The notes under the pieces: model-generated | Seen by the model: the letters and a program-made list of their open reading frames with translations, nothing else | Databases searched by the model: none | Told to the model about the DNA's origin: nothing | Translations under genes and position numbers: made by a program | DNA from: a virus | Virus record (IMG/VR): IMGVR_UViG_3300042453_005121 | Location: 64,001-128,000 of that record | Direction: 5' to 3' (one strand) | DNA length: 64,000 nucleotides | In this document: positions 48,835 through 58,706 of the stretch, piece after piece | Numbering within the stretch: position 1 is the first letter of the stretch | Layout of the letters: each line of letters begins with the position of its first letter

Positions 48835-49515
48835 TTAAATTCTTTCGTTTGAAAATTCCTGAGTGAAAAATTGCTCCACGAATGGAGTTATCGCAGACCT
48901 GTAATATATCTTGTCGAAATCAAATGGAATGTCGTCTCCGTAAATTTTTTTGACCCAAGGAGAAAGAAGCAGGTAGAAATATGATATTTCTCCGTTCGCA
49001 CTCCACCTCTCAAGATTTTTTTTGTTCGCCGAGAAGGAATCGTAGTCCAATAAATTTTTGGATTCCATGAAAAATCGTGTATTTTTGAGTTCAGTTATGA
49101 CCTTTGATTCTTTGGTTGAAACTCCGATCTGATCAGATGTGAGAGCCTTGTTCAATTTCTTTCGGTACATTTTCTGCCATATTTTCCATCTCTTCCATGC
49201 CTTTTCGCCGACCAAGCAGTGGGGTTCTATCAACGCATGAATGTCTCCCTCTTTTATTGATTTCAATATTTGAATTTGCGACCGCACATATGTTCTGAGG
49301 TCCTTGTCTTCCAGAACTCCCTTCATTTCCCGGGCGAGTTTGTAGCAATATTTGAAAAGAGTTGATTTTCTAGGGTCGGTGTTTTTCTTGAGTTTCGCGA
49401 AAGATTCCTTTGGAATCTCTCTCCGACATTCTTCCTCCCAGATTATGGCGATCTTGAAGGCTTTCGCCTCCATATCGTTCATCTTGTATTTGATGATCGG
49501 TTCAAGTTCGCTCAT
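48835..49515 (-). CDS. hypothetical protein, possibly T4 gp59-like helicase loader
   Basis: Similar size and pattern to gp59 (FKYCYKL, AWKRWKIW, GEISYFYLLL); weak resemblance only. Confidence 0.45.
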   Translation of the reverse strand: MSELEPIIKYKMNDMEAKAFKIAIIWEEECRREIPKESFAKLKKNTDPRKSTLFKYCYKLAREMKGVLEDKDLRTYVRSQIQILKSIKEGDIHALIEPHCLVGEKAWKRWKIWQKMYRKKLNKALTSDQIGVSTKESKVITELKNTRFFMESKNLLDYDSFSANKKNLERWSANGEISYFYLLLSPWVKKIYGDDIPFDFDKIYYRSAITPFVEQFFTQEFSNERI

Positions 49516-49626
49516 TTTCCCGTATTGCAAAATGCTCATGTGTAGGTATGATCTGTTTCCGGAAACTTGAACTAATATAACCTGAAACCTGAAAACGAAC
49601 AACTGTAGAACATTTGCGGTGAGATG

Positions 49627-49903
49627 CTGCTTGATTTTTCGGGGGGACCCGAACCATGCCAGTTAGAAACTCCTGGTAGTCGTCCTAAGCGTTGTGTCGA
49701 GAGGCACATGAGGTAAACCAATAACAAAGGGCTGTATCAGTCTCGCGAAAGACTTTTTGGCTAGGCGAAAGCCGTGCGTTTTTCCCGTGAAACCCGACAG
49801 TAGTTTGATCTGTCAAGGGGCCTGGGTCACGGTCCATAATGGACAAAAAATCAATAAAGTCGTATAAGCGGATATGAAGGACGGGAAGTAGGCGGTCAAG
49901 CAG
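49627..49903 (+). ncRNA. putative large structured non-coding RNA (unassigned family)
   Basis: Intergenic, no ORF. Closing helix 49627-36/49894-903, inner helix 49680-86/49878-84, three GNRA-capped hairpins and further stems. Confidence 0.6.
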
Positions 49904-49951
49904 AAAAGACGGAATGTCCGAACTGAGGACTGAACTCGTCTGAGATTTTCG

Positions 49952-50020
49952 GTTATCTAGAGTATATTCTAGATAACTATAATCTTAAGATTAGTAGGGT
50001 CCAAAGGGAAGGACCCCCTT
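49952..50020. repeat. cluster of palindromes/inverted repeats (origin-like or regulatory)
   Basis: GTTATCTAGA-6nt-TCTAGATAAC (49952-77), perfect TAATCTTAAGATTA (49980-93), GGGTCC-8nt-GGACCC (49997-50016). Confidence 0.75.
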
Positions 50021-50045
50021 CTATAAACACATAATTGGATAATGC

Positions 50046-50249
50046 ATGAACACAGATCATTTGGTCCCAAAAAGTCCTAGTAAAAGCAATAAAGATGGTA
50101 GAACTACCGACAAGAAACTCAAACGGTATCTCAGGAGGATATCCGATAGAAAAGGAATATCTTACAAGGAGGCAATTTTAAAGTTTTATGGGGTTGAATC
50201 ATTGAAAAAACTAGATGAACGACTGGTTCATTCTCTTTTCAAAGATTGA
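50046..50249 (+). CDS. small basic hypothetical protein
   Basis: 67 aa, Lys/Arg-rich, between the structured region and the polymerase. Confidence 0.55.
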   Translation: MNTDHLVPKSPSKSNKDGRTTDKKLKRYLRRISDRKGISYKEAILKFYGVESLKKLDERLVHSLFKD

Positions 50250-50287
50250 GATGGATTGTTCTAGAAAAACATGTAGAATGATTTTCA

Positions 50288-51598
50288 ATGACCGATTTTG
50301 TTGAATTCCTGCCGCGTCTCAAGGGCAAGGACGTATACTTCAGCCTGAACAAGGAAAATCCGGACTGGAACGAGTCGGTTGGCGTTGAGCTTTCCTTTCG
50401 TCACGGCGGAGAGTCGCTGACGTTGTCCTTGGATGACGTGGATCAGTCTTCTTACCTCGCCTCTTCTCTTCATCATGTTCTGGACGGCGGAAACGCGCTG
50501 ATCTCTTGGTGCGCCAAGGATGTTTTTTCTTTTTTGAAGGGCCGCACCGGAATCGGATTGGAGCTGAAAGGGAAAATTTATGATCTTTCCGTCATATCTT
50601 CGTATCTCGGAATGGAGGCGGACAAGCCAAAGACGTTCAGGGAGGCTGTTGCTCTCCTGAAGTCCTGTTTGTCCGATCCCGGCTGGGAGCAATTCAAGTC
50701 TTTTTATTTCGGAGTATATGAACCACTTTTTTCTGAGGTTCTTCCCGAAATAGAGACGTGCTGTCTCGTGGACAACAAGAGAAGGAGTTGCGTCTACGCC
50801 ACCTACGTGATTGAAGGTCAGGTGAACGGAAGACTCAGGACCGTCAAGACAGGGCGGAATTCTTACAATCCTCATTCAATGGGTCCTGACGACAAGCGTG
50901 ATATCAGGCCACAGGACTACGACGACGTTTTTTTGTATTTTGACTACCGAAACATGGAGGTCAACGTCCTTCAATGGCTGTCGGGAGACGGGGATTTGGC
51001 AAGAGTGCTGGAGTCCGGTTCTGATCCATACAAGGAGATATGGCGGATCATCACCCGGCAGGAGCCCACAGAAGGCCACAGAAAGATATGTAAGGACATA
51101 TTCCTGCCCGTGGTATTCGGTCAAGGCAAATCTTCCTTGGCGGCCAAATTGAAAATTTCGGAAGAAATTGCTTCCAGACTCATACATAGCCTTGGTAAGA
51201 CATTTCCCGTTGCCTTTGACTGGGTCAACTCCCAGTCAACCAATGGCAACAACACGGCGACTGACGCCTTCGGCCGCAAAAGGACTTTTGACGGCCGGGA
51301 GCAGTACAAAGTTAAAAACTTTTGTATCCAGTCCCCAGCGAGCATGATCTGTTTGAGAAAACTTGTGCGTCTTCACGAGGCTCTGGCCTCTAGGGCGAGC
51401 ATATGTTTTCACGTACATGATGGATATTACGTCCTTTGCAAGAAAAGCGAAATCAATTCAATTGCGGAACTCGGAATCAGAACTCTCGAGGAGGACGATT
51501 CCATGTTTCCGGGTCTCGCAATGCGTGTCTCCTGCAGGGCGGGAGACAGGTTGGATGACATGCGTTCTATAACACTAACAAAAAGGGTTTCAATATGA
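50288..51598 (+). CDS. polA: minimal family-A DNA polymerase (no thumb, vestigial 3'-5' exonuclease, no 5'-3' exonuclease)
   Basis: NGRL motif, motif A FDYRNMEV, motif B RKICKDIFLPVVFG, FGRKR, NFCIQSPAS, motif C HVHDG. Confidence 0.85.
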   Translation: MTDFVEFLPRLKGKDVYFSLNKENPDWNESVGVELSFRHGGESLTLSLDDVDQSSYLASSLHHVLDGGNALISWCAKDVFSFLKGRTGIGLELKGKIYDLSVISSYLGMEADKPKTFREAVALLKSCLSDPGWEQFKSFYFGVYEPLFSEVLPEIETCCLVDNKRRSCVYATYVIEGQVNGRLRTVKTGRNSYNPHSMGPDDKRDIRPQDYDDVFLYFDYRNMEVNVLQWLSGDGDLARVLESGSDPYKEIWRIITRQEPTEGHRKICKDIFLPVVFGQGKSSLAAKLKISEEIASRLIHSLGKTFPVAFDWVNSQSTNGNNTATDAFGRKRTFDGREQYKVKNFCIQSPASMICLRKLVRLHEALASRASICFHVHDGYYVLCKKSEINSIAELGIRTLEEDDSMFPGLAMRVSCRAGDRLDDMRSITLTKRVSI

Positions 51599-52149
51599 AG
51601 ATACACGATTCTTTCCCCGTGACAGAGGAGGAGTACCTCCTTCTAGACAGCAAGTTCGGCGAACTTTGCGAGTATCAGGCTTGGCAACTCATAAAGAAGA
51701 ACACGAGAAACAACCACACCGACAATCAAGAGGACATAGCCCAGGACATGCGGATAGCTTTGTTGCGGGCGGCGTCCTACTACAAGCGGCAGTGCTACAT
51801 AGAAGCCTGCATTGATTTGTGCAAGAAGCATGCGAAAGACCCAGTCATAAAGTCTGTTGTGAAGCAACTCGCCAACCTGTGGAAGAACAAGACCAGACAC
51901 GGAGCCAATAAGCAGAAATTTGGACCTCACCAAGAAAAGATGCTTGACAAGATCGTGAGGGTTCTGCTTCCCATCAAGGAACGGCCCGACAAGAAGGCCT
52001 CGCTCAGGATAGACACCAAGTTCACGACTTATTGCAAGGCCATAACATGGAATGCGCAGAAGTCGCTCGGCAAGAGGATAACGAGGGAGAAGGGCATACG
52101 GACCGGAATGGTTTCTTTGTCCGAATATGATTATCTGGGCGGTAATTGA
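51595..52149 (+). CDS. sigma70 region-2-like protein with internal insertion
   Basis: EDIAQDMRIALLRA ... KFTTYCKAITWN ... MVSLSE; ATGA-coupled to the polymerase gene. Confidence 0.6.
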   Translation: MKIHDSFPVTEEEYLLLDSKFGELCEYQAWQLIKKNTRNNHTDNQEDIAQDMRIALLRAASYYKRQCYIEACIDLCKKHAKDPVIKSVVKQLANLWKNKTRHGANKQKFGPHQEKMLDKIVRVLLPIKERPDKKASLRIDTKFTTYCKAITWNAQKSLGKRITREKGIRTGMVSLSEYDYLGGN

Positions 52150-52185: not shown

Positions 52186-52578
52186 ATGCAGAGACGGATT
52201 TTTTTGGTGGTCGGCGGAGTTTTGGCCGCCGAGTGCATTGCCGGTGAACCGACGAAGGCCATTGCTTTGGATATTAATTCCTACGAGAGCGCAGTTAGAT
52301 TTGCCAAGGATTCTGGCGGCCGGGCATATGTGCTCTTCGTCGGAAGCCGGTGCGATTGGTGCGAACGTCAGAAAGAGATTATGGAGGATAGTAGGGTCAT
52401 AGACGCATTGAAGCCTTTCTTTGTCGCTTATGTGAATGTTTCGGAGAACAAGGATGTTTCAAGGTTTCATAAGGTGAGGGTGGTTCCCACGCATATGATT
52501 TTGGATCAGGAGGGCGAGGTCGTGAAAAGATTTCAAGGTTATCAGGACGCGAAAGAATTTTTGGAGTGGATCGGCTAA
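52186..52578 (+). CDS. thioredoxin-fold protein with signal-like N-terminus
   Basis: CDWC active site, VVPT cis-Pro loop; AAGGAGG RBS. Confidence 0.85.
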   Translation: MQRRIFLVVGGVLAAECIAGEPTKAIALDINSYESAVRFAKDSGGRAYVLFVGSRCDWCERQKEIMEDSRVIDALKPFFVAYVNVSENKDVSRFHKVRVVPTHMILDQEGEVVKRFQGYQDAKEFLEWIG

Positions 52579-58614: not shown

Positions 58615-58643
58615 TTGACTTCTTATACGATATAACCTATAAC
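58615..58643 (+). promoter_or_regulatory. sigma70-type promoter TTGACT-17-TATAAC for the SSB gene
   Basis: Near-consensus hexamers with a 17-nt spacer. Confidence 0.65.
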
Positions 58644-58706
58644 ATGAACATGCGACGCAGATGCGACGCTTGAACTTGAGATAACCTTTAACAACGGAGA
58701 ACTAAC

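Follow-up and report, generated by a model that had tools for sequence, protein, structure and literature searches.

The window analysed here, a stretch of 64,000 nucleotides (nt), comprises bases 64001-128000 of the 150.8-kb IMG/VR virus record IMGVR_UViG_3300042453_005121. CheckV assigned a completeness of 28 % to this record, thus the source is a huge phage. The plus strand of the window encodes at 49627-50017 a conserved, highly structured and previously undescribed RNA of about 390 nt, located in a gap without open reading frames (ORFs). On the minus strand, the gap is preceded by genes for an NAD-dependent sugar epimerase and then for a protein of 226-234 amino acids (aa; 48835-49515). 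On the plus strand, it is followed by genes for a 67-aa basic protein, a 436-aa family-A DNA polymerase and a 184-aa protein, and further by genes for a thioredoxin-like protein, a GMP-reductase/IMPDH-like protein and a DnaB-like helicase. Translation of the gap (49516/49540-50045) with table 11, with table 4 or with TAG read as glutamine revealed no credible ORF. Hidden coding in an alternative genetic code (table 4, TAG=Q) was rejected, zero ORFs being obtained. An original prediction, made from the sequence of the window alone, had considered this gap the largest ORF-free one in the window; the gap is real and ranks among the two largest there. ARAGORN detected neither tRNA nor tmRNA genes in the window.

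The single-sequence fold barely exceeded that of shuffled sequences (z = -1.8 on the plus and -1.35 on the minus strand), therefore the evidence had to be comparative and the z-score was not used. IMG/VR relatives of the polymerase kept the synteny and had a gap of equal length. An 18-nt run, GGGCCTGGGTCACGGTCC, was identical in three aligned gaps, with flanking proteins of just 57-62 % identity. After pattern scans of viral and metagenome collections, a covariance model, R1, was built on nine syntenic sequences. It scored the window at 219 bits and recovered full-length copies in the relatives L027-L031, which have a lower guanine-plus-cytosine (GC) content (E 1e-18 to 1e-26). Nine further loci were fetched via relatives of the 184-aa protein, and eight of these carried the RNA, one on a 633-kb contig. 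The total amounts to 22 distinct RNA copies on at least 22 huge-phage contigs, all placed identically between the divergent gene and the gene of the small basic protein. In the 150.8-kb record of the phage itself, the RNA is single-copy.

The alignment of the 22 sequences was fitted to the model; controls with slid positions and the eight copies that turned up after model building argue against circularity. Standard pairs were present in 91.5 % of the cells, in comparison to 70.8 % in shuffled alignments and 37-47 % in the slid controls, and none of 500 shuffles equalled any of the structure measures. Among the 69 modelled pairs, 57 changed on both sides, i.e., by compensatory changes. G-U cells were far more frequent than A-C cells (72 to 11), therefore the plus strand is the RNA. 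The original prediction of a large structured RNA on this strand was thus borne out, and its helix coordinates were all accurate within one base.

Rfam 15 (4227 models) gave no match over this region of the window, neither at the gathering threshold nor at E<=10, and none over the RNA in five homologous loci, in agreement with the original prediction, which did not recognise it as RNase P, tmRNA, SRP, 6S or a group I/II intron. Literature searches found no published description of it. In about 185,000 prokaryote genomes the core motif had chance matches only; the pattern match in L011 and seven pattern matches in prokaryote-genome contigs were judged to be chance and not RNA copies. No RNA was detectable in L004, L033-L035 and L063, a 343-kb record included, despite the presence of the same short polymerase. 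Searched singly with the covariance model, L032 and L033 yielded scores of 11 bits or less. In the relatives lacking the RNA, the polymerase gene is preceded by other stretches of 400-750 nt without an ORF, some of which begin with consensus sigma-70 promoters (TTGACA-N17-TATAAT). Such regions were located at L032:3025-3413, L034:1826-2430, L035:3100-3670, L004:3194-3929 and L063:1500-2213. They had no Rfam match and, with ARAGORN in five relatives, no tRNA or tmRNA match; they may represent additional RNA classes in the same place.

The model contains 13 helices in the arrangement P1 [ P2, P3, P4 [ Pa[P5], Pb [ P7 [ P8, P9-P9b-P10, P11 ] ] ] ]. P1 (49627-36/49894-903) closes a core domain at 49627-49903, and 9 of its 9 modelled pairs changed on both sides. 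It is followed by the hairpin P2 (TTCGGG/CCCGAA, 49638-49653; 6/6 pairs covary), whose loop sequence is not conserved, and by the hairpin P3 (TGCCAG/CTGGTA, 49657-49678), in which three of the four modelled pairs covary. The helix P4 (49680-86/49878-84), predicted as TCGTCCT/AGGACGG, spans 49680-49884 and encloses the inner domains. Six of its seven pairs covary, with versions such as GUCC/GGAC, GUUCC/GGAAC and UCCCU/AGGGG. Pa, AGC(G)/(G)GCU at 49688-49733 (4/4 pairs changed on both sides), surrounds the GNRA hairpin P5 (TGTGTC/GGCACA, 49693-98/49703-08; 6/6), which is replaced by a longer hairpin in lower-GC members.

Two long-range helices follow. Pb, UCGC/GCGG (49743-46/49868-71, spanning 49743-49871), covaries in 5/5 pairs and occurs as GCUUGA/UCAAGC, GCCUGU/ACAGGY and UUUUCGG/CCGAAAA. 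P7, GACUUU/AAAGUC (49751-56/49856-61, spanning 49751-49861), covaries in 6/6 pairs, with the versions GACUUUU/AAAAGUC, GGUCUUUUG/CAAAAGAUC and AACCUUUUG/CAAAAGGUU. Both stand in place of the local hairpin AGTCT/AGACT of the original prediction, which was not conserved. Inside P7, the GNRA hairpin P8 (GGC-GAAA-GCC, 49760-49777) carries an outer extension that lengthens it to 7 bp, and all five modelled pairs covary. The near-invariant core at 49785-49832, with a three-way junction, comprises P9 (CCGUG/CACGG), P9b (ACCC/GGGU) and the hairpin P10 (GACAG/CUGUC), and includes an 18-nt run identical in the higher-GC members. P9 seems invariant in close relatives and covaries in distant ones (CCAUG/CAUGG, and CCACG/CGUGG in L064); in P10, 4/5 pairs covary. 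The hairpin P11 (UCC/GGA, 49833-49843) pairs in 94.6 % of the cells, with changes from U-A to U-G only. Apart from the AGTCT/AGACT hairpin, the predicted helices were recovered by covariation in the 22 homologues: the closing helix, P2, P3, P4, P5, GGC-GAAA-GCC, CCGTG/CACGG around GACAG/CTGTC, and TCC/GGA. Of the three proposed GNRA loops, those of the second and third hairpins are retained in higher-GC members only, and that of TTCGGG/CCCGAA is not conserved.

Downstream of the core domain, a variable, A+T-rich linker (49904-49996) contains a hairpin (49952-61/49968-77) and a palindrome (49980-93). A linker hairpin of differing sequence is kept in the homologues, as read by eye and uncounted. 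The linker is followed by the 3' element (49997-50025), which consists of a local hairpin, GGGTCC/GGACCC, the motif AGGGAAGGACCCCC (50005-18) and the U-rich tail CUUCUAUAAA. All three palindromes predicted downstream of the RNA are present, and the last one (49997-50016) overlaps this conserved element, which pairs with the RNA core. The partner in the core is the junction strand J, AAGGGGCCU (49815-49823), located between P10 and P9b. As 5' strand of a pseudoknot, its bases 49817-49823 pair with 50010-50017, where A50013 is bulged, therefore the RNA spans at least 49627-50017 (391 nt).

Across the 22 sequences, J is complementary to an element 160-230 nt downstream in nine covarying versions: GGGGCCU/AGGCCCC, GGGCCU/AGGCCC, GGGGCGU(A)/(U)ACGCCCC, GGGGUAUA/UAUACCCC, GGGUUUU/AAGGCCC, GGGGUAU/AUACCCC, GGGCAUA/UAUGCCC, GAGGUCU/AGACCUC and UCCGGGCC/GGCCCGGA. 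These pseudoknot statistics were computed by script, as the MAFFT alignment could not keep the pseudoknot in fixed columns. In scans of 14 transcripts of about 530 nt each, the 3' element was the best duplex partner of J in 12; in the remaining two it ranked seventh of about 480 windows. The local hairpin and the pseudoknot share nucleotides and have comparable duplex energies, -4 to -16 kcal/mol for the hairpin and -7 to -15.5 kcal/mol for the pseudoknot. At least 4 U within 8 nt after the C run were present in 11 of 14 members. The 3' element is always directly before the first gene of the operon and ends 13-45 nt ahead of the start codon of the 67-aa protein. Two other pairings were discarded by eye: that of an upstream GAAACUUCAAC motif with the P10 loop was inconsistent, and the alternative TTGATTTTT/AAAAATCAA was not conserved in homologues.

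Upstream of the RNA, a consensus scan of the sequence revealed a candidate sigma-70-type promoter on the plus strand, TTGCAA-N16-TATGAT (49525-49552). Both hexamers recur with a spacing of 16-17 nt at the equivalent place in L022-L026. A ATAACCTGAAAC box follows on the same strand at 49577-49588, and the higher-GC homologues retain its ATAACCT. The pattern ATAACC[TC]N[AT]AAC has three occurrences in the 150-kb record (49577-49588, 58632-58643 and 58681-58692), all of them intergenic, on the plus strand and upstream of plus-strand genes, one inside a promoter-like site TTGACT-N17-TATAAC. This box may be a phage-specific promoter or operator.

The gene of the 67-aa basic protein (50046-50249, plus strand) encodes the core RRxLRRIxxRKGISYKEAILKFY, without a match in Pfam or PHROG; the more general form of this core is RRxIRRLAxRKGISYxEAIxxFY...NKNLxYSL. 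With a hidden Markov model of the small protein, the gene was detected in 19 of the 19 tested loci that carry the RNA, but in 0 of 13 relatives without it. The 436-aa polymerase (50288-51598, plus strand) matched Pfam DNA_pol_A at 7.7e-22 over the profile positions 145-378 only. Palm and fingers are present, and the motifs A, B and C (DYxxxE, RKxxKxxxxxxxFG and HD) align to Klentaq. The AlphaFold model (pLDDT, the predicted local distance difference test, of 90) superimposed on Klentaq with a Z of 32 over 391 residues. Residues 7-215 correspond to Taq 299-606 with about 100 residues fewer, the loss being N-terminal of motif A. Residues 157-211 form no long helix, and the Pfam profile positions 1-144 were unmatched. 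According to this model the thumb subdomain is absent; the original prediction of a thumb-less polymerase adjoining the RNA agrees with the missing residues and the lack of long thumb helices. Direct reading of the sequence revealed no Exo I DxE motif in the exonuclease-like N-terminal domain. A second polymerase of family A or B was not found in the 150-kb fragment. Orthologues of 421-453 aa occur on many huge-phage contigs. The 2023 reclassification of family A defined 19 subfamilies and includes 'broken thumb' groups; a text search of this article found no thumb-less group (PMC10201439), and by that search the polymerase of the window falls outside the 19 subfamilies.

The 184-aa protein (51595-52149, plus strand; C-terminal end SLSEYDYLGGN) is possibly sigma-like. 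Its identity amounts to 87-89 %, compared to 55-62 % for the polymerase, and 744 relatives were found at E<=1e-10. The sole family signals were Sigma70_r2 at E=0.1 in two of 14 members and an atlas lead; profiles of the PDB gave no match. The divergent gene (48835-49515, minus strand) is syntenic in all relatives. Its earlier label 'gp59-like' found no support: Pfam, PDB sequences and the atlas gave no match, the best fold match reached a Z of 5.8 (AAA+ lid domains), and gp59 was not among the fold matches. The thioredoxin-like protein (52186-52578) has a hydrophobic, signal-like N-terminus, MQRRIFLVVGGVLAAECIAG. The lower-GC relative L028 contains a tRNA gene at L028:8020-8092, downstream of the replication module.

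We tentatively favour, at somewhat less than an even chance, a reading of the RNA as cis-regulatory 5' leader, with a competition between the pseudoknot and the local, often terminator-like hairpin. Transcription would start from the promoter near 49525-49552, and the RNA would be the 5' leader of an operon for the 67-aa protein, the polymerase and the sigma-like protein. The RNA would act in cis, with the pseudoknot as an anti-terminator or structural lock against the hairpin, which resembles a terminator in most members. Whether transcription or translation enters the operon would depend on the state of the folded core; candidate effectors would be the 67-aa basic protein, in an autoregulation, or a small molecule. 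That the pseudoknot reaches an element shortly before the next gene speaks for such a cis-acting leader. Also in its favour are the covarying fold on the plus strand, the comparable energies of the two competing pairings, the U-rich tail of most members, the constant position before the operon, the joint presence or absence of the RNA and the 67-aa gene, and the promoter-like sequence conserved upstream. As in riboswitch-type leaders, a conserved covarying domain lies upstream of a gene and on the same strand. The ORF-free regions at the same place in relatives lacking the RNA were counted as consistent with a leader.

Riboswitches can reach their expression platform by distal pairing, e.g., by the L5-L13 kissing loop of the adenosylcobalamin riboswitch or by the pseudoknot across a variable linker in the ZTP/pfl riboswitch. 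The RNA shares with these leaders a covarying multi-helix domain closed by P1, a variable linker, and a distal partner of the core that overlaps a local hairpin before the regulated gene. It differs by the lack of an Rfam riboswitch match, by its size (about 390 nt and 13 helices) and by a terminator that is not universal. Autoregulatory mRNA operators are also known from gene 32 and gene 43 of T4 and are tens of nucleotides long. Here again a structured element, a pseudoknot or a hairpin, lies upstream of a replication gene, and the phages of this study may share a T4-like late transcription. In contrast to these operators, the RNA has about 390 nt and the first gene codes for a small basic protein, not for the polymerase.

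Several observations speak against a leader. L027 and L029 have a weak local hairpin, and the U-rich tail is missing in L027 and L030, hence the terminator is not universal. The Shine-Dalgarno sequence is located outside the pseudoknot and not sequestered, and the 95 nt of the linker are a long stretch for an expression platform. Between the 3' element and the start codon there is a TATAAA-like box, which could serve as a promoter of its own; the RNA would then be transcribed independently. In size and complexity, the RNA resembles ribozymes or ribonucleoprotein RNAs more than the riboswitches known so far.

A stable RNA acting in trans, or as part of a ribonucleoprotein with the 67-aa protein as partner, is a rather unlikely alternative to the leader. 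The pseudoknot would be fixed and the RNA would end at the U-rich tail. The strict co-occurrence of the RNA and the 67-aa gene is in line with such a particle, as are the many helices and the near-invariant core, which resemble those of large functional RNAs, and the closure of the conserved region with a hairpin and a U-rich tail in most members. However, the 3' strand of the hairpin, if terminating, cannot simultaneously be part of the pseudoknot, and there is no independent strong terminator. Moreover, the RNA is single-copy and never occurs away from this operon. Among large RNAs, GOLLD and ROOL also exhibit a complex, covarying fold in phage genomes. Unlike these RNAs, which are near tRNAs, the RNA described here has no Rfam match, is smaller and holds a fixed position upstream of one operon.

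The original prediction had proposed an RNA-primed origin with a dedicated Pol I. The transcript would form an R-loop and be extended as primer by the short polymerase, as for RNA II of ColE1 or at oriF and oriG of T4. As with these primers, a long folded transcript lies beside replication genes, and a G run has its pairing partner in a C run some 200 nt further downstream. The divergent junction within a replication module (polymerase and DnaB-like helicase) and the A+T-rich linker fit an origin as well, and covariation alone cannot distinguish RNA-RNA pairing from a pairing between J and the displaced non-template DNA. The primer RNA of ColE1 has an rG run that hybridises to a dC run of the template strand (PMC4412123), whereas the C run here (50014-50018) is on the plus and thus on the non-template strand. 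The locus gave no origin signal: the GC skew, run as a check, was uninformative, flat and without a turning point. Relatives that share the replication genes do not have the RNA, the 'gp59-like' assignment is unsupported, and a primer would have no need of 13 conserved helices. We therefore consider an origin transcript improbable.

A ribozyme, e.g., a self-cleaving processor of the operon mRNA, is highly doubtful. Large pseudoknotted folds with a near-invariant junction core are typical of catalytic RNAs, but the Rfam search revealed no ribozyme even at E 10, and no conserved candidate cleavage site was identified in the RNA. The other proposal of the original prediction, that the RNA serves the polymerase as cofactor, either as processivity element in place of the thumb or as template or primer, would fit the adjacency of the RNA and the true absence of the thumb, but it is very improbable, as L004, L033-L035 and L063 have the same short polymerase without detectable RNA and the occurrence of the RNA follows that of the 67-aa gene and not that of the polymerase.

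The RNA is a new family inside a known kind, that of structured leaders or noncoding RNAs, and may with a real chance prove to be a functional class of its own. New large RNAs with a complex fold are rare, and most of the known ones proved to be ribozymes, riboswitches or ribonucleoprotein scaffolds. It is possible, although on the unlikely side, that the RNA represents a novel class of large functional RNAs restricted to huge phages: a riboswitch of unprecedented size, a ribozyme or the subunit of a particle with the 67-aa protein. Such a riboswitch would sense a metabolite related to replication, and such a particle would control the switch to replication and late transcription. The RNA precedes the polymerase and a candidate late-transcription factor, is strongly supported by the comparison of homologues, and comes with a constant partner gene and a clearly defined pseudoknot. 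It presents an experimentally tractable entry into how huge phages time their replication.

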